NCBI GenBank assembly: GCA_951406725.2
Contig: OX597821.1
Coordinates: 23,746,001-23,810,000, forward strand
DNA length: 64,000 nt
Reading direction: 5' to 3'
Source of the DNA: Octopus vulgaris
Taxonomy: Eukaryota
Shown: one piece after another, positions 9,974 to 64,000 of the stretch
Position numbering within the stretch: position 1 is the first letter of the stretch
How the letters are laid out: each line of letters opens with the position of its first letter
Position numbers and translations under genes: made by a program
The notes under the pieces: model-generated
Seen by the model: the letters and a program-made list of their open reading frames with translations, nothing else
Told to the model about the DNA's origin: nothing
The model's database searches: none

Positions 9974-10054
<81 letters not shown>

Positions 10055-10056
<2 letters not shown>

Positions 10057-10242
10057 GGAGTAAACACATAAATGTGAAACAAGGTGGGAAAAGAGTACTC
10101 AAATACCAGGAGTAGAGTAATATGCTTTATTTAAAAGCAGCAGAACTTCAACAAAACCTGTTACTTGGAGTTTCACGTTCCCGTTCGTGAAACTCCGAGT
10201 AACAGGTTTTGTTGAATTTCTGCTGCTTTTAAATAAAGTATA
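10055..10242. mobile_element. Fold-back PLE-terminus-like element in (TA)n (same family as 52110-52370)
   Basis: Arms 10121-10177 / 10186-10242; shares AGTAATATGCTTTATT and GAGTTTCACGTTCCCGTTC with 52 kb copy. Confidence 0.75.
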
Positions 10243-10294
10243 TATATATACATATGTGTATGTATATATGTACACATATACATAGATACATATG

Positions 10295-22692: not shown

Positions 22693-24168
22693 AGGGCGCG
22701 AATTGCTCGAGCCCAGCAAGATGTGCGAGGCATTTCAGCGGCACTTTGCCCTACTGTACGGGACAAGTGGCGAGCGTGAACGCAGAGTGGATTTCAGTGC
22801 CTACCTGCACAATCTGCCACGACTCTCGGCAAGAGAGGCAGAGTGCTGCGAGGATGCCATCACGGCGGTGGATGTGCGGGACGCAATGGCAGAATGCTCG
22901 AGAGACAAATCGCCGGGTTTAGTTGGTCTGCCCTACGAGTTTTACAATTGTATACCAGACTTGTTTGGAGACGTCTTGGCATCGGTATACTGCAACTGGC
23001 AGCAAAACGGGAGCATACCCGGTTTTGTGAGTCGCAGAGCCGTAACACTGCTGTAGAAAGATCCAAACAAGGGGACATGATAGATAACTTTAGGCCCATC
23101 ACTCTGCTCAATGCAGACCTGAAAATTTTGACCAAGGTGTTAGCCAAGAGGTTGGCGCTTGTCATCGAGAAATTGGTCGACAAGGCACAAACGTGCGCCG
23201 TGCCGGGCGGGAGCATCCATGACAACCTCCATCTGATGCGCTACATCATAGACAGAGTAGTTAAGGAACCTGGCATGGGTGGGGCGCTGATCAATTTGGA
23301 TCAATCGAAAGCCTTCGATAGGGTAGGCCATCAATACTTGGAGGCAGTCCTGAGAGAGGCTGGTTTCGGTCCCGTCTTCCGCGGCTGGATAGCTGCTTTG
23401 TACAGAGGCATCCGTTCGGTAATTCGTGTAAATGGACATCTATCGAGACCTTTCGACATTGCACGTTCGGTCCGTCAGAGATGCCCCCTCTCGTCGCTTC
23501 TATACGTATTGACTCTCGAGCCACTACTGTGGAAGCTGGCGACTCTGAGGGGCATCCCGCGAGAATTGGGATGTGGGACGAGCGTGTCTGCATACGCGGA
23601 CGACGTCCCCGTCATAGTGTCAAGCCACGAGCACATCGAGCTGGTCGGCGAGACACTGAAAGACTACGAAGCGGTGACAGGAGCGAAAATCAACCGGGAA
23701 AAGTCAGTGGACTTGCGGCCCGGCACCTGGAGAAGCAAGCCCATGCCGTCCACCAGCACCTCCGTCGTGGGACGCTGGACGGACGGCCGGTTGAGTTGCT
23801 CGGGGTCTGGTTCGGTCCGGACCTCCAAATGGTGAAGAACTGGAACGAGATAACGAGTAGGGTGGTCACTCTCGCCCGGCAATGGGCCGAGAGGAAACTG
23901 TCCCTAAAAGGTCGGGCGGAAGTGGCGAACACGTACATCGCGTCCATCATCTACTACCGCCCGCCCGACTGTCGTACCTTGTCCCGACCCTACCATCACC
24001 AAACTAGAACGCATTCTCTTCCGCTTCTTCCCCTTTTTTCCCCTCTTTCTTTCCTTTTACGATCCTTTTTGATAGAAAACCAAACCCCCTGTTTTATCCC
24101 CAAAAGAAAAGCTCTACCTTGTAATTTGTCCCGTCTGTGTGCAGCCCTGTGTGGCTAATAAAGAAACA
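22693..24168 (+). mobile_element. Tx1/L1-clade LINE, 5'-truncated, RT pseudogene with internal deletion
   Basis: NFRPITLLNADLKIL, LDQSKAFDRV, RQRCPLS, AYADDV motifs; stop at ~23054, frameshift ~23790; AATAAA 3' end; flanked by (TATC)n. Confidence 0.92.
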
Positions 24169-30471: not shown

Positions 30472-31712
30472 TTGGGTTGAGGAATAATTCATGATCATTT
30501 TTTTTTTTCAAATTTAGAAATGCACGCAGAAATAAAACGCATTGGCAAAGTGTCTTATGTTATTCAAAAGAGAATTTTTTGCTCAACAAGATAGTGTGTT
30601 TTGATTTTTAAATTTTATCAATTTTTGTGTATTTTCAAATCATTAAAATGGAATGTCAAGTGGACAAAACTAAGCATTTTCGAAACCATTTGTTTTTTTT
30701 GCATTTAATCGAGGTGTTAAGGCTGCCGAAGCTGCTCGTGAGATTTGTGCAATGCCTCAAAGTACCACCCGCCGTTGGTTTTCGCGCTTTAAAAATAGGA
30801 ATTTTAGCCTCAAGGGCAGATTATACACCGGTCGACGAACTGAGTTCGATGAAGAGCGATTGAATCAACTTCTTCACGAAACTCCACGTCAAACGACCAG
30901 AGAATTAGCGGAGCAGATGGATTGTGATTAAAAAAAAAAAAAAAAAGCTGTGGTGAACCACGTTCACTCAGTGAACAAGGTTCAGAAACTCGGCGCTTGG
31001 GTGCCACACACTTTGAGCGAAAGCAACAAAAATCAACGCTCCACAATCGCCGCCAGTTTGCTCGCTCGACATCGCTCAACACTTGGTCACAGACAGCGTT
31101 TTCTTTACCGCATTGTCAATGGCGATGAAATATGAAGCAGCGAAAAGAATGGCTCAGCTCCGACAAACAAGCGACTTTGCGAGCAAAAGATCTTCATCCT
31201 CGAAAGACCATGTTGTGTGTATGGCGGGGCTGGGAAGGCATAATTCATTACGCAACCAAACACTCAATGCGGAGCTCTACGTTCAACAACTGCACCGACT
31301 CAACGAAGCAATTCAGCAAAAAAGACCGAATAGGCGAAATGGCGTTCTTCTGCAGCACGACAACTCCCGTCCTCACATCACCAATATGACCAAAGCTGCG
31401 ATTCAAGAACTCGAACGGGAAGTGCTGCCTCATACTCCATACTCTCCAAACTTGGTGCCGTCATATTTTCATCTCTTTCGACCGCTCTCGAACGCTTTGC
31501 GCAATGTATTATTCAATAATGACGTGGAATTGAGAACTTGGTTGGACGAATTCTTTGAGTCAAGACCGGCTGATTTCTATCGCCGAGGCATCGAAAAACT
31601 TATTGAACGATGGGAGGAAGTCGTAAACAGCAACGGAAAGTAATATTATTGATTAATTTGTTGTAGTTTTTTTCATTAAAAACAAACGCTGATGAATTAT
31701 TCCTCAACCCAA
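30472..31712 (+). mobile_element. Full-length mariner transposon, transposase pseudogene (30648-31643)
   Basis: TIR TTGGGTTGAGGAATAATTCAT with TA TSD at both ends; WVPHTL, HDNSRPH, YSPNLVPSYFHLF motifs; frameshifts. Confidence 0.95.
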
Positions 31713-35010: not shown

Positions 35011-35290
35011 CCTTTACACCGCACACACACAACTTTTATCCTTTACTTGTTTTAGTCATTGGACTGCGGCCATGCTGTTTCTCCATCTTGAAGGGTTTAG
35101 TCGAACAAATCGACCCCAGTGCTTATTTTTCAAAGTTTGGCAGTTATTCCATCGGTATCTTTTGCCGAACTGTTAGATTACGGGATAGTAAACAAACCAA
35201 CACCAATTGTCAAGCGGTAGTAGGGCATTGACGAACGGCAACGTGAAACTGTGACATTTTTGTGATATCTTTGCTGTTTTTTAAAATAAA

Positions 35291-35330
<40 letters not shown>

Positions 35331-39689: not shown

Positions 39690-41585
39690 CACCACAGGAA
39701 CATGAAAGAGTGGAAAAACTCCTCAATACACACATGGGAATGTGGTGCAACATACTTCAACCCATATTCCTACGCTATACGGGTTACGTAAAGACCATAA
39801 ACCCTAGGTAAACCCCGTTATGGGGCTCTCAACTCGACCAGTTTGCGCTACAAATATCTCTAGCAATTATAGACTATCCTCTTTCCTCTCACAGGTACCA
39901 CGACCACTCACTGAAATGTCCCCAGATGTCTGTGTGAGCACGGGAGGATCTCCTCAGTAGAATCAGTAATTGCAACCACTCCAACGCCCTCACAGGTTGT
40001 GTAATGGGTAGTATGAATGTGATTTCACTCTACCCATCTATAGACAGTGATTTTGCTGTGGAGAAATGCATGGAGATTATCTGAGAGTGAAGTAGAGTTC
40101 CGTGAAGTCAACGCGAAGGAACTGGGCTTCCTCCTTAAACTATGACTGTAACTATCTAGACAACCATGACTATAGTAAATTCTGCCTCACCAGGTCACAG
40201 AGGGGAAGACCACCCACCACCAACTCAGCAGTGAAGAAAAGCACCGTAGAGCACTGGAGTGGCTGGACCATACCCACCCAAGATCCTGAAAACAACAACC
40301 AGGTGAAAGGAGTGATTGCACATGCAGTAAGGGCTAACATAAGAACCACTTTGAGCTACATAGTAAAGTTTAACAGGAAACCATAGATGCCGGTTCAAGG
40401 TGCAGCCATTGGTGTCGGTGTAGCTGGAGATGTGGCTGGTCTCTTCATGACCTGGTGGGACAGAAAACTTAAACAATCCTTAGCTGAACAGTCCACAACT
40501 CTTTTACTTTACTGTAGGTATATAGACGACATTAATATTCTAGTGAAAACCAACTCTAGTAACAGTAATGTGGAAACCGAGAGGAACATAATGGAGAGCA
40601 TCCAGCATGTAGCTAACTTCATCCACAAAGTATCAAGGTAACTATAGATTACTCCACAAGGTACCTTTGGTTAGAGACTGTGAACAACAACGTGCAGCTC
40701 CTCCACTCCTATTGCATGAAACCCATAGCTTCGAAATATGTTGTTCATAAGAACTCGGCTTTTTCACACAACATGAAAATCAATATACTGATAGCAAACT
40801 TAGGATAATGAACAACGTGTCCCCACTATGCAAACCCTATGAAACAAAGAAATATGTACAGAACGTCATGCACCGCATGCAATTCTCTGGATATGATCAG
40901 AAAGATAGGGTTCGGGTATACAAGGGTGCTAGAAAGATGTTAGATAATATTATATGTAATGACTCCAGCGATACCTGCCCTAGATATAGATGTAAAGACT
41001 GGAATAGAATACAAAGAGTTTCTTACAAAGCAAACAGGGTGAACACGTGGTACAAGACCGACAAACATCAAGGAGTGATGTTTGTAGAGGTCACAGTCCA
41101 TGGAGAATTAACCCGTAGACTTAGGAAAGCTCTGAAGGAGACCAAACTCAACATTAAGATCGTTGAAAAGCCAAGGAGCTCCATCAGATCACAACTATGT
41201 AGGACGTACCCCTTTAAGAATACCATATTCACCGATGATAACTACATTGTATGTAAAATTAACCCTGACATTAACTGTTAAACTAGAAATGTAATCTACA
41301 GCATAAGGTGCATAGAAGGCGCTTGTAAAGACAAGAACATGATATACATAGGTGAGACATCTAGGAACATTGCGGAAAGACTAAATGAAAATTTGAGACA
41401 ATATGACGAGAAAAAAAAAACAGTTCTCCATACTCTACCAATATCCCAACATGATAGTAACCTGGGTCAACTTGACATCTGTATTTTATCCAAGCACCCG
41501 AAGGACCCAACACTAAGACAAATACAGGAGAACGTCTTCATAAATGAAACATCCCCAGTACTAAATAGGAAATATACGTAGTAGG
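39690..41585 (+). mobile_element. Penelope-like retroelement, decayed RT plus GIY-YIG endonuclease
   Basis: PTLYGLRKDHK, SMNVISLYPSID, GAAIG, RYIDDI, NVIYSIRC, YIGETSRNIAERLNE across frameshifted ORFs. Confidence 0.9.
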
Positions 41586-46480: not shown

Positions 46481-46846
46481 GTGGAGGCGCAATGGCCCAG
46501 TGGTTAGGGCAGCGGACTCGCGGTTTCGATTCTCTGACCGGGCGTTGTGAGTGTTTATTGAGCGAAAACACCTAAAAGCTCCACGATGCTCCGGCAGGGG
46601 ATGGTGGTGATCCCTGCTGTACTCTTTCACCACAACTTTCTCTTACTTCCTGTTTCTGTTGTATCTGTATTTCAAGGGGCCGGCCTTGTCACTCTCTGTG
46701 TCACGCTGAATATCCCCGAGAACTACGTTAAGAGTGCACGTGTCTGTGGAGTGCTCAGCCACTTACACGTTAATTTCACGAGCAGGCTGTTCCGTTGATT
46801 CGGATCAACCGGAACCCTCACCGTCGTAACCGACGGAGTGCTTCTC
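46481..46846 (+). mobile_element. SINE family C with second tail type, TSD-flanked
   Basis: tRNA-like head; TSD ATAAAATCAACG. Confidence 0.92.
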
Positions 46847-48849: not shown

Positions 48850-49540
48850 ATGACCATTTACGAGCGACCAGGTGATATGATGGGGCAATGATGGATGCCT
48901 GTGAGGATGGTGGTGTTGGAGAGGTAGGGGCAAGTGCAACAGCGTGGGCGGGAACAAGGTAACGAGCCATGTTGGGAGGTGGGGTTAGGAAAGAAACTGT
49001 GGACCAGGAGGTTACGCAGGTTGTGGGCTCGTTTGAAGGAGGGTAGGGTAGGTTGGGGAAGATGTGCGAAGTGGAAGAGGCTAGGTGAGGGAAATGGGAG
49101 ACGGGCAACGGCGGAGCAGATGCGTGGAGAGAGCGCAGAGGCACGGTCCACGGTACGTGCTCTGGCAAGGGCTGTGTGGATAGTGGTGAGGGGATATCCA
49201 TGAAGAATGGCGAGCCGTGAGTTGTGACTGAGTCTCAAAATCAAGGTTGTCATGCAGAGCCTGCACAGACGGAGGAATTGGGAGTAGGGGATGGAGAGCT
49301 TGGTGTGGGTAGGGTTGGAAGAGGAGAGGTTAAGGTATGAGTGTGAGTCGGTATGTTTGTAGTGGATGGAGGTTGTGAGAGCGGAGTGGTGTTTGTTGAC
49401 CGAAATGTCGAGAAAAGCGACTGAAAGTTGGAAATAGTGCAGGAGAATTCGAAGACAGGAAGGAAGCATTGGACAAAAGAGAGGAAAGAGTCTAGATGTT
49501 CGCGGGAGAGTGAGGTTACACCGATACAGTCATCAATATA
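48850..49540 (-). mobile_element. Penelope-like RT/thumb/Zn-knuckle fragment
   Basis: YIDDCIG, FLDISV, IHYKHTDSHSYL, SIPYSQFLRL, CSRPRCCTCP motifs; frameshifted. Confidence 0.9.
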
Positions 49541-50593: not shown

Positions 50594-51159
50594 TTGGGTT
50601 GTCCGGAAAGTTCGTGCCGATTTATAGTAGCTTATATTTCGACTTATTTTAGAACATGGTTGAGTCCATAAAATAGGATTTGACTACACCTCCATTTAGA
50701 GCACAGTTTAAGCTATCTTTTCGTGGAAGAAGGTTTATATTCCTATAACCTGTGTTAATTCTGTAACCCTTTAAAACGGAAGATAAGAAAGTCCATTTTC
50801 GGCACTTGATGCTTTGGGAACCAGACAAAAATTGCTGCAGCTCGTCTGGGATGTGTTACCCCACCCTCCATATTCACCAGATGTTACTCCTTTGGATTTC
50901 CACTTATTCAGGTCTCTGCAGAATAGTCTTAATGGTAAAAATTTCAATTCCTTGGATGATGTAAAAAGATACCTTGATGAATTCTTTGCCATGAAACCAC
51001 CTCAATTCTGGGAAGAGGGTATTTTCAAGTTAAAGGAAAGATGGAGACGCATCGTGCAACAAAATGGTTCATATTTGGTTGATTACAAATGTAATGGCAA
51101 GTATTTATTGACCTTTTTCTTTCCTTTAAAAATCGGCACGAACTTTCCGGACAACTCAA
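50594..51159 (+). mobile_element. Second copy of 566 bp non-autonomous mariner
   Basis: Same TIRs, TA TSD and deletion junction as 37061-37626. Confidence 0.95.
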
Positions 51160-51269
51160 TATTTATATTGCCGCCACCGGGTATCTAGCTGAGTACTTAA
51201 GTTCATCTAAGCATACCAGACGATAGGTCCATGCTGTGGTAAAGAGTTAAAGGTATCAAGCAACGATGG

Positions 51270-51624: not shown

Positions 51625-52160
51625 AATACATGTGTGCGTGTGTGTATAGTAAAGCTTGTCTACAAACACTTTAAAATACATCATAAAAAATGCTTTTTGT
51701 GAAAGCAACGTTTCAGTCGGATTAATTCTTCAAACGGTGCGTTTCGTGAGGAATAGCTTTTAAAACAGCTTTCAAATAAGAATAAAAAGAAAGAAAATCA
51801 ACTGATCTTGTAAGAAATGTTCGCAAAACCGTTTTGCTTCGGAAATAGCATTTATCTTTTACTCGTTTCACTCATTGAACTGCGGCTATGTTGGGGCACC
51901 GCCTCGAAATGCTTAGGCGAACAAATCGAACTCAGTACATTTTCCAAAAGTTTGGCACTTATTCTATCGGTCAGTTTTGCCGGACCACTAAGTTACGGGG
52001 AAGTATTCAAACGAACACTGGTTTTCAAGCAGTGGGAGGACAGATACAAACATAAGATACACACACACACGTGTGTGTGTGTGTGTGTGTGTGTGTATGT
52101 ACTATTATTATTATTTCAGCTGCATAAACAAACAAAAAATCACAAAAAATATCACAAAAC

Positions 52161-52200
52161 ACTGCTACTCAGAGTTTCACGTTCCCGTTCTTCGGACAGT
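52161..52200 (-). ncRNA. Minimal type-I hammerhead motif (U4C core)
   Basis: ACTGT-CCGAAGA-ACG-ggaa-CGT-GAAA-CTC-t-GAG-TA-GCAGT. Confidence 0.72.
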
Positions 52201-52217
52201 TTAGATTGAGAAGCTAA

Positions 52218-52257
52218 ACTATCCGATGAACGAGAACGTGAAACTCGGAGTAGCAGT
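52218..52257 (+). ncRNA. Minimal type-I hammerhead motif (U4C core), inverted twin
   Basis: ACTAT-CCGATGA-ACG-agaa-CGT-GAAA-CTC-g-GAG-TA-GCAGT; one stem I mismatch. Confidence 0.68.
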
Positions 52258-52386
52258 GTTTTGTGATACTTTTGTGATATTTTTGCAGCTTTAACAGTAA
52301 TAAAGCATATTACTCTACCTCCGATATTCGAGTACTATCTTTTCCCACCTTGTTTCACATTTATATATTCATTAATACCTCGATAT

Positions 52387-52762
52387 TTGGGGCGCAATGG
52401 CCCAGTGGTTAGGGCAGCGGACGCGGGGCCGTAGGATCGCGGTTTCGATTATCAGATAGGGCGCTACGAGTGTTTATTGAGCGAAAACACCTAAAACTCC
52501 ACGAGGCTCCGGCAGGGGTGGGGGTGGCGAACCCTGTTGAACACTTTCACCACAACTTTCCCTCACTCTCTCTTCCTATTTCTGTTGTACCTGTATTTCA
52601 AAGGGCCAGCCTTGTCACACTCTGTGTCACGCTGAATCTCTCCGAGAACTACGTTAAGGGTACACGTGTCTGTAGAGGGCTCAGCTACTTGCACGTTAAT
52701 TTCACGAGCAGGCTGTTCTATTGATCGGATCAACTGGAACCCTCGTCGTTGTAACCGAAAAA
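52387..52762 (+). mobile_element. SINE family C, TSD-flanked
   Basis: TSD AATACCTCGATAT. Confidence 0.92.
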
Positions 52763-53307
52763 AATACCTCGATATACGAGTTGATTTGTTCCCGGAGACC
52801 GCTATATGCTTTGGCATTTAATTGTTCCTGATTGCACAGCAGCTTTCCAGAAGGTTTACAAAATTTTGGCAAAGTATTTTCATCCGAAAGGTATAAAAGA
52901 TATCCGTATGAATTTTTTAGTATTGTACCGGATCAAGCACCCGTAAAACAGAACAACAATTTCCTATAGTTGCAATGAAATTTAATGCTAAAACCAAAGG
53001 TTTTTTGTTGACAGCAAGACGGCGGCGCGGCCGAAACTCGACGGCCAATGTAAGAGGGAGATAATAACCTAGTGTTTAACTTCATAGCGAGGCAATTTCC
53101 TCTCCATATTTTGAAGCGGTCTTAGGCCAGCTGTGTTTAGGGTCTGAAGATACGTCGTAAGGCTAAGCCACTTATGAGCGGGAAACCTGGGTTAACCCCA
53201 TAAACTGGCCTCCCTCATTATAATATTAACTGCACTACATCTTAGAGTGTGCTTCTCCTCCAGATTTATGTATTTCTACGGACGAATATGCATATATATA
53301 TATATAT

Positions 53308-59544: not shown

Positions 59545-60780
59545 CACAGACATGCAGGAAATAGACACCTTTAATTTTCAAAATCTTTTATTTAATACGT
59601 AAAGCGAACAATTGAAATGTGATCGATAGGTAGGACTAAATACTTTAGTATTTAGTTGACATTCTCTTTGCAGTTTTTAATTCAGAAACTCTTTTTGGCA
59701 TTGAACTGAGGAGCTTTGTGATTATCTCTTGTGGAATTTCTGCACACTTTTCACGCAACAATCGAAACAATTCATCTTTAGATTTAGGTTTCTGCCGAGT
59801 TTTTCGTATAGCTCTATCTAGTATGCTCCAAAGATTTTCAGTTGGGTTCACGTCAGGAGATTGACTCGACCAAGGAAGCTTTTTGACCCCATTTTCTGTC
59901 AACCATTGTTGATTCCTTTTCGCTGTGTGGCATGGAGCCCCATCTTCCATGAATAAAAACTCATTTTTCGTTATGTTATCGTGTGAATACATCGGAAGTA
60001 GTCCTTGCTTAAGTATTTCGATTTTTCAGAGTTTATGTTTCCAGCACATTCGATCAGCTCAGAACGACCATTGCTGGTGACAGCTCCCCATACCATTAAA
60101 GAGATACCGCCATGTTTCACAGTTGGTTGGAGTCGTTTCAAATCAAATTCTTAATTGGGAAGCCTCCAGACCCAAACACATCCACTGTTTAAAAAAATCT
60201 GGATTCATATGAGAAAATCACTATCCCAAAATGAACTAGAATTTTCTGACATCTCCTTAGCCCATTTCTTTCTTTTCATGATATAAATTGGTTGAAGGAG
60301 AGGCTTTCTTCTAGCTGCCCATCCATAATACCCAAGCTTATGCAGATATGTAACACGTTTTTGAGCTAACTTCTACCTATTTTGTAATGTCAGAAGCCTT
60401 CGAACGGGTTAGTTTTCCACAATTCTCTTCAAACAGCGGAGCTTCCTTTTCGAGGGCCGGGACGAGAATCTGTTGATTCTTTTCCTTGGCTTTTGAATTG
60501 CATTATAATTCTATTAACAGTAGCAAGAGGAATTTGATGATTTTCAGCAAATTTTCGCCGGCTAAGATTGCTCAAAAATACGACCTCTTTGAAAATCTGA
60601 CAGCTCTGCTGAATTTTTTGTGCGTGGCATGGTTACTCTTCGCAAATGTTTAATATAATGGCACCTGGAATGAAAGAGAATAATTACATTGTAAATTCTA
60701 CACCGCTGAAAACATATTAAGACGCTTAGATTGGAAATTTTGAAAATCATAGGTGGCTTTTTACTTCCTGCATGTCTGTG
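59545..60780 (-). mobile_element. Near full-length Tc1 (DD34E) transposon, pseudogene 60630-59645
   Basis: TIR CACAGACATGCAGGAA both ends; MPRTKNSAELSDFQRGRI, FMEDGAPCHTAK, WSSQSPDVNPTENLW. Confidence 0.93.
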
Positions 60781-63295: not shown

Positions 63296-64000
63296 TCATT
63301 TATTATCAAATACCGCTTTTAAACGATTAGGCATTGAATCAACTAGTTTCTTGCGGGTGCTAGATGCAATTTTACTCAAATCTTCTCTCAACTTTTGGTA
63401 CAAATACTCTTTATTTTTAATTGTTGCGTTCCTGATAGCTTCACCAAGAGTTCCCCATTGGTGTTCAATCGGATTAAGATTGGGACTTTGAGCTGGCCAG
63501 TCCATGGGAACAATACCCTGTGTTTCAAACCATTGACGAGTATTCTTTGCTGAGTAACATGGAGCGTTGTCCTGTTGAAAGGTAACACTGTTTTCCGACA
63601 CTCCTGGATGCAATTTAGCAATTGATGGTTTTAAAACATCCGATAACATAGAAACATAGGTAGCTGAATTCATCCTTCCCTGACATAAAACCATTTCTCC
63701 GGGTCCTGTGGTAGACATGCAGGCCCACACCATTATAGAACCATCCCCATGTTTTACGGTTGGTACCAGACATTCAGCCTTAAATGCTTCCCCAACTTTG
63801 CAACGCACGAAAATTGCACCGAAAACCAGAGTAAAAACATGAAAAATAATGTTAGCTTTACGTTGGATACTTTCTTTAAATACATTTTGGGCAACAAACC
63901 AGTTACATACAGTTTATATGTTGACTGAATACATGTACTATCTTACCTCATAGTTACTTTCATCAGACCATGTAACTTTCGACCATTGCTCACTGGTCCA
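63296..64000 (-). mobile_element. Tc1 transposase 3' part with apparent intron; continues off-window
   Basis: WSDES, PTVKHGDGSIMVW, FQQDNAPC, WPAQSPNLNPIEH. Confidence 0.92.

Follow-up and report, generated by a model that had tools for sequence, protein, structure and literature searches.

Head-to-head copies of a hammerhead-bearing repeat in the Octopus vulgaris genome, with the probable architecture of a Penelope-like insertion

Introduction

How does one short stretch of genomic DNA come to carry a hammerhead ribozyme motif on each of its two strands, and could either ribozyme act there? We addressed these questions at a locus near 52 kb in a window of Octopus vulgaris DNA (the whole 64,000-nt stretch that was analyzed; all positions are counted from its first letter). 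An initial annotation had described this locus as a hairpin at 52118..52290 with a complete hammerhead on each strand. We consider it probable that the hairpin is a head-to-head pair of 5'-truncated copies of a dispersed repeat that bears a hammerhead, that a Penelope-like element (PLE) or a non-autonomous derivative likely deposited the pair in a single insertion event, that the hairpin has likely been decaying since, and that its ribozymes are, by prediction, inactive in place.

PLE insertions are 5'-truncated, often with an inverted truncated copy at the 5' end, carry a 30-40 bp tail at one end only and favour microsatellites (PMC8557442; PMC8969392). The head-to-head arrangement is the commonest inverted form of PLEs, and its origin is unsettled (PMC3846280). 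The pseudo-LTRs of PLEs carry type I hammerheads with a palindromic helix III that work weakly as dimers (PMC4209133; PMC6765202), dimer cleavage having been described by Lunse et al. (as cited in PMC6765202), and pairs of these min-HHRs on opposite strands, 100-700 bp apart, have already been reported (PMC4209133). In vitro, a PLE protein, modelled as a dimer, cuts and extends both DNA strands, reverse transcription begins at two internal sites that set the limits of the tail, and insertion does not depend on cleavage by the ribozyme (PMC11167929).

Results

Architecture of the 52-kb hairpin

The segment 52100-52310 is predicted to fold at -104.8 kcal/mol, compared with a mean of -34.8 kcal/mol for shuffled sequences (z -17.1), and none of the 200 shuffles was equally stable. 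The arms of the hairpin are 91 bp long and differ at 11 of the 91 aligned positions and by 3 indels. Because the arms have diverged, we rejected the possibility that the structure is a fold-back artefact of the reads or the assembly.

The hairpin is only part of a unit that spans approximately 52101-52364, beyond the limits first annotated, and is made up of two copies of a dispersed repeat that are truncated at their 5' ends and meet head to head; just one arm bears a tail, of 59 nt. The left arm (52101..52204, minus strand) is an inverted, tail-less, 5'-truncated copy of the 3' end of the repeat; its outer end, uncertain by approximately 5 nt, abuts a (GT)n microsatellite. Nine unpaired nucleotides (52205..52213) form the centre at the head-to-head junction, and a weak hint from one contig end suggests that they are probably extra 5' sequence of the left arm. 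The right arm (52214..52305, plus strand) is a 5'-truncated copy of the same 3' end that runs to the short end (AATAAAG) common to tail-less copies. It alone is followed by the tail (52306..52364, plus strand), and the long end of the family continues approximately 13 nt further into (TA)n. We found no target-site duplication of at least 5 bp around the unit. Such duplications are often hidden within microsatellites. Rfam microRNA models also matched the hairpin (best 54.9 bits, against a gathering score of 83), and these were rejected as generic long-hairpin matches.

The DNA of the window is rich in microsatellites and other repeats. A SINE-like repeat whose head weakly resembles a tRNA (Rfam E 0.52) lies at 52387-52762, approximately 10 bp past the hairpin tail; it is flanked by a 13-bp target duplication (52374-52386 and 52763-52775) and has an 84% copy at 46486-46833. 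An abundant repeat of approximately 200 bp, with more than 15 copies in the window, adjoins both the 52-kb hairpin at its microsatellite end (51851-52070) and a solo copy of the hammerhead repeat near 35 kb (35035-35227). Farther away are a frameshifted LINE reverse transcriptase remnant on the plus strand (22780-24158), which we take to be L1/Tx1-like, and fragments that presumably stem from Tc1/mariner-like transposases (31017-31643, 50787-51188, 59645-60025 and 63296-63913).

Hammerhead motifs on the two strands

Both strands carry a type I hammerhead motif, on the minus strand at 52159..52202 and on the plus strand at 52216..52259, and both motifs point outward from the centre of the hairpin. 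The plus-strand motif has its core at 52223-52229 (C3 at 52223, C4 at 52224, A9 at 52229), stem II at 52230-52239 (3 bp and a 4-nt loop), GAA at 52240-52242 and stem III at 52243-52251 (a 4-bp palindrome with a 1-nt centre), and its predicted cleavage follows the cleavage-site A17 at 52252. In the minus-strand motif, the core lies at 52195-52189 (C3 at 52195, C4 at 52194, A9 at 52189), stem II has 3 bp and a 4-nt loop, the palindromic 4-bp stem III lies at 52175-52167, and cleavage is predicted after A17 at 52166. A GAAA box, an A15.1-U16.1 pair and a UH triplet are present in both, with GUA as the cleavage triplet. Stem II is closed by A-U, not by the usual G10.1-C11.1, and its 3' side, CGUGAAAC, is identical in all five arms of the family within the window. 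The motif ends approximately 45 nt before the short 3' end of the repeat.

These details bear out the initial annotation on the U4C core, which has C in both arms, and on the 1-nt loop of stem III, which in each arm is a palindrome of 4 bp around a single base. A type I motif is indeed found on both strands, but "complete" was a generous word: stem I of both motifs has an A-G mismatch at the sixth pair, and in the plus-strand motif it is broken at the second pair by an A-C mismatch (52221) without compensation. The minus-strand motif keeps five contiguous stem I pairs. Likewise, the reported separation of 17 bp applies between the 5-bp stem I strands (52201-52217), but the cores are 27 bp apart.

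When both strands were scanned, a hammerhead descriptor, written to fit the two 52-kb motifs, matched exactly these two sites in the 64 kb and a single site in 300 dinucleotide-shuffled versions of the window. Searches with the Rfam hammerhead families gave no match at the gathering score, and none at E<=10 on the 52-kb hairpin or on either arm alone.

Predicted folding of read-through, monomeric and dimeric RNAs

We then considered whether either ribozyme could form. By folding energies that ignore tertiary contacts, Mg2+ and proteins, forcing the hammerhead fold in read-through RNA costs 61-62 kcal/mol on either strand, and the probability of the stem II pairs is approximately zero, again on either strand. 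This agrees with the earlier proposal that each ribozyme would be sequestered by its antisense. The 52-kb ribozymes are predicted to be inactive in place, with read-through RNA forming a long duplex instead. In single-arm RNAs, the predicted formation of the ribozyme stems is no more than 3%.

Dimer-dependent cleavage had also been suggested on the basis of the 1-nt loop. The two arms differ in this respect in the models: as isolated 44-mers, the minus arm reaches -14.3 kcal/mol as a double hammerhead versus -1.1 kcal/mol as a monomer, which supports the suggestion, as do the papers on PLE hammerheads; the double hammerhead of the plus arm, however, is modelled at only -0.3 kcal/mol and hardly gains from the dimer. 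Even for the minus arm, -14.3 kcal/mol stays above the co-fold minimum of -21.3 kcal/mol. The self-duplex of the palindromic stem III is predicted at -9.7 and -7.9 kcal/mol for the two arms. The two 52-kb motifs cannot serve as each other's dimer partner, because they are never on one RNA.

Members and abundance of the repeat family

The repeat has two further members in the window. At 10054..10243 lies a second head-to-head hairpin with 58-bp arms and an 8-nt centre, which folds back at stem II; it has a tail on one arm and (TA)n on both sides, and contains no complete core. At its junction (10170-10190), the complementarity of ribozyme stem II was used as the joining microhomology. The third member (35228..35291, plus strand) stands alone and has decayed, a deletion having removed sequence across stem III and stem I, and its tail-less end precedes (GT)n(TA)n. 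A profile of the family matched five arms at these three loci with E below 1e-15, these arms being the sequences from which the profile was built, and beyond them a search of the window returned nothing better than E 0.63. Tail-less arms stop at the same AATAAAG point, the tail at 10 kb matches that at 52 kb, each being present on one arm only, and (TA)n or (GT)n is found at four of the five outer 3' ends. None of the three loci is a head-to-tail tandem; all are solo or head-to-head.

Given that the 10-kb sibling folds back elsewhere in the ribozyme, the two-ribozyme state depends on the truncation point. The initial annotation missed that the pairing of the motifs is a by-product of how the repeat family inserts, the 10-kb hairpin having no complete core.

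The right arm and its tail were also aligned to contigs of two sequencing runs. Of DNA run X1, which is possibly the source of the assembly and in which contig depth does not equal copy number, 1389 contigs aligned; of X16, which is only guessed to be RNA, 50 did, and most of the aligned sequences were 80-95% alike. The long end of the family running into (TA)n is shared by 62 contigs, and none of the 50 X16 pieces was at least 99% alike to the 52-kb locus. Clearly, the repeat family is abundant and dispersed. We considered an editing or deamination signature behind the differences between window and family, but those listed for the aligned contigs run in mixed directions when judged by eye. 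In viral, metagenome and prokaryotic genome contigs, scans with exact patterns of the motif or the tail returned no locus.

Position 4 of the core could be read in two paralogues, the copy at 35228 in the window and one X16 contig end, and both have U4. In the contig alignment to the right arm, coverage dwindles and stops near 52217-52234, and its table of differences lacks even the left-arm change at 52221. The 35-kb copy also has U at position 3, but the X16 contig end is an inverted copy with the canonical CUGANGA core. C4, for which the family state had been named as a check, is thus not the state of the readable paralogues, and from these two sequences the U4C change looks specific to the 52-kb locus or to a small lineage. 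That C4 predates the inversion, as first proposed, is the most economical reading of its presence in both arms, but later copying between the arms would also fit. U4C is known as a natural variant of a viroid hammerhead in which activity in vitro is strongly lowered and infectivity still allowed (as cited in PMC3088659).

Comparison with PLE insertions and PLE remnants in the window

We compared the family with the traits of PLE insertions. An inverted 5'-truncated copy joined at the 5' end and a short tail at one end only were found at both 52 kb and 10 kb; a hammerhead near the 3' end and an AT-rich or microsatellite target were found as well. With respect to the metazoan PLE min-HHR consensus (PMC4209133), the palindromic helix III, GAAA box, A15.1-U16.1 pair and UH triplet are present, but the CUGANGA core is replaced by one with C4 in both arms, and the G10.1-C11.1 pair with an extra base after A9 is absent. 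By its architecture the insertion would be classed as PLE-type, and the ribozyme as a non-consensus variant.

No reverse transcriptase (RT) or endonuclease frame linked to the repeat family was found within the window. A broken element at approximately 39900-41580 (plus strand) encodes an RT-like part (RVT_1 E 0.008, below cut-off), a cysteine-rich linker and, at the C terminus, a GIY-YIG domain (E 2e-7), interrupted by several frameshifts and stops; elements with RT and GIY-YIG therefore exist in this genome. This one is likely a PLE of the Neptune/Nematis type. The family profile found no copy within or beside it. A 223-codon frame at 48861-49529 (minus strand) has no match in Pfam; presumably it corresponds to the C-terminal part of a Penelope/Poseidon RT, which it resembles. 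We considered a link between this Penelope-like remnant and the 52-kb hairpin and found it unsupported, since the two lie 2.6 kb apart across unrelated repeats, the facing arm is tail-less and Pfam gives no match.

Discussion

If the hairpin is a PLE-type insertion, then a sequence of steps can be proposed for its formation. The proposal starts from what can be seen directly: the inverted arms, the outward motifs, the one-sided tail, the two shared 3' end points, the microsatellite flanks and a sibling locus built in the same way. A PLE endonuclease would cut AT-rich DNA or the edge of a microsatellite, and reverse transcription would start at one of two sites downstream of the hammerhead, the long end giving a tail and the short end none. 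Synthesis would halt early, leaving a 5' truncation, and a few complementary bases would link two copies where their 5' ends are truncated. The truncation point would decide whether two, one or no cores survive; at 52 kb both truncations would have fallen just upstream of the core, so that a whole motif was left on each strand. The parent element's motif would cleave in dimeric form by way of the palindromic stem III, probably weakly. The uncompensated break in stem I of the plus arm, along with the 11 substitutions and 3 indels between the arms, are signs of decay at 52 kb.

The differences between the arms raise the question of whether one template or two were copied. Of the four differences between the arms within the 44-nt ribozyme, three occupy free positions, of which there are six (N7, loop II and loop III; P 0.006 in a post hoc test). 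Only one of the 38 constrained positions differs; among outer-arm positions, 7 of 47 do (Fisher P 0.07 for this comparison, 0.02 with the free sites added to the outer arm). Plain neutral decay does not predict such clustering on free positions, which hints at two template RNAs. We therefore considered a PLE-type insertion in which the arms were copied from two element RNAs, or from a pair of pseudo-LTRs within a single tandem RNA, a double-strand cut providing one nick to prime each of them, and where the palindromic stem III could hold the RNAs together. The ability of the PLE protein to cut and extend both strands, and its modelling as a dimer (PMC11167929), are in keeping with this. The tail is on the right arm, yet the 9-nt centre is slightly more like left-arm sequence (4 of 6 letters agree, versus 2 of 6, in a visual comparison to one contig end), and a tail and a centre on different arms are not expected from a simple snap-back off the tailed strand. 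The left arm, moreover, has the common family letters at 52247, 52269, 52295 and 52297. However, the pattern consists of four differences at a single locus, tested post hoc, and two features shared by both arms point to one template. These are C4 and a stem I-breaking G at 52258, where T accounts for 1362 of 1517 depth units (90%), the remainder being unusable as allele counts since the alignment clips pieces wherever they differ. In addition, the sole stem III difference between the arms of the 10-kb hairpin breaks a pair. On balance, we regard two templates as unlikely.

A bolder form of the same idea is that the palindromic stem III kept two different element RNAs paired while each served as the template for one arm, and that head-to-head PLE insertions in general record twin priming by an RNA dimer. 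We offer this as a speculation that is rather improbable. If it were true, the main job of the ribozyme would be to pair templates, not to cut, which would explain the spread of catalytically poor variants such as U4C, and the many short hairpins of the family would make the question of PLE inversion directly testable.

Selection on the locus was also considered. Both cores, both stems II and both stems III are intact despite approximately 12% divergence between the arms, the duplex is very stable, and U4C is tolerable in vivo in a viroid (PMC3088659). The locus might then be kept as a host RNA element, its ribozyme silenced by its own antisense arm and freed in transcripts starting at the centre, or its hairpin feeding small-RNA silencing of the family. 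Such selection, however, sits poorly with the broken, uncompensated stem I of the plus arm, with the uncompensated mismatches between the arms, with single-arm RNAs that rarely form the ribozyme stems in prediction, and with a sibling hairpin at 10 kb without a full core, and we think it very unlikely. Least credible of all is an origin without retrotransposition, in which a solo hammerhead repeat was caught up in a fold-back DNA transposon (MITE) or in a local inverted duplication that came later. The long inverted arms and the lack of a coding frame and of an ORF link to a PLE might suggest it, but family members fold back at different points, a tail occurs on one side only, the two 3' end points of the family match the ends, solo copies exist and a target duplication was not found.

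Taking the hairpin as a PLE-type insertion, the 52-kb locus itself matters little, as it is likely one of many decayed insertions. Its value is that of a specimen of a high-copy hammerhead repeat family with a non-consensus motif. Short head-to-head junctions of this kind could reveal the mechanism of PLE inversion, that is, whether it proceeds by self-priming or twin priming, and from one template or two. Searches of the text of the literature and of the supplements of three papers returned no description of the family or of the motif variant (A-U closing stem II, 4-bp palindromic stem III), although a published U4C or A10.1-U11.1 PLE variant may have been missed.

Several known systems resemble parts of this locus. 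The U4C hammerhead of the viroid shares the core change (PMC3088659), but the 52-kb motif sits in genomic DNA, has a truncated stem I and is a candidate ribozyme only. Animal non-LTR retrozymes (Cervera and De la Pena 2020, PMC7229834; Li et al. 2026, 10.64898/2026.07.22.740005), which have been proposed to derive from PLEs, are like the family in being non-coding and high-copy and in carrying a type I hammerhead; they are, however, head-to-tail tandem repeats of 150-450 bp, whereas the family loci in the window are solo or head-to-head. Closer are the metazoan PLE min-HHRs (Cervera and De la Pena 2014, PMC4209133), which have the type I topology in common with the 52-kb motifs, as well as a short helix I, a palindromic helix III fit for dimers, an AU-rich 3' flank and occurrence as opposite-strand pairs. 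Unlike them, the 52-kb motifs have C4, A-U for G10.1-C11.1, a 3-bp helix II without the bulged base after A9 and a helix III palindrome of 4 bp, and the 27 bp between their cores is short relative to the 100-700 bp of min-HHR pairs (PMC4209133). With PLE pseudo-LTR insertions (Craig et al. 2021, PMC8557442; Arkhipova et al. 2013, PMC3846280), the locus shares the head-to-head junction, the 5' truncation, the one-end tail, the hammerhead near the 3' end and the microsatellite targets. It departs from the usual PLE insertions in that the family copies have no ORF and both are cut to approximately 100-150 bp, and in that the family tail measures 59-72 nt compared with the 30-40 bp usually reported. 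The arrangement as such is already in print for PLEs, and the hairpin is ordinary in kind.
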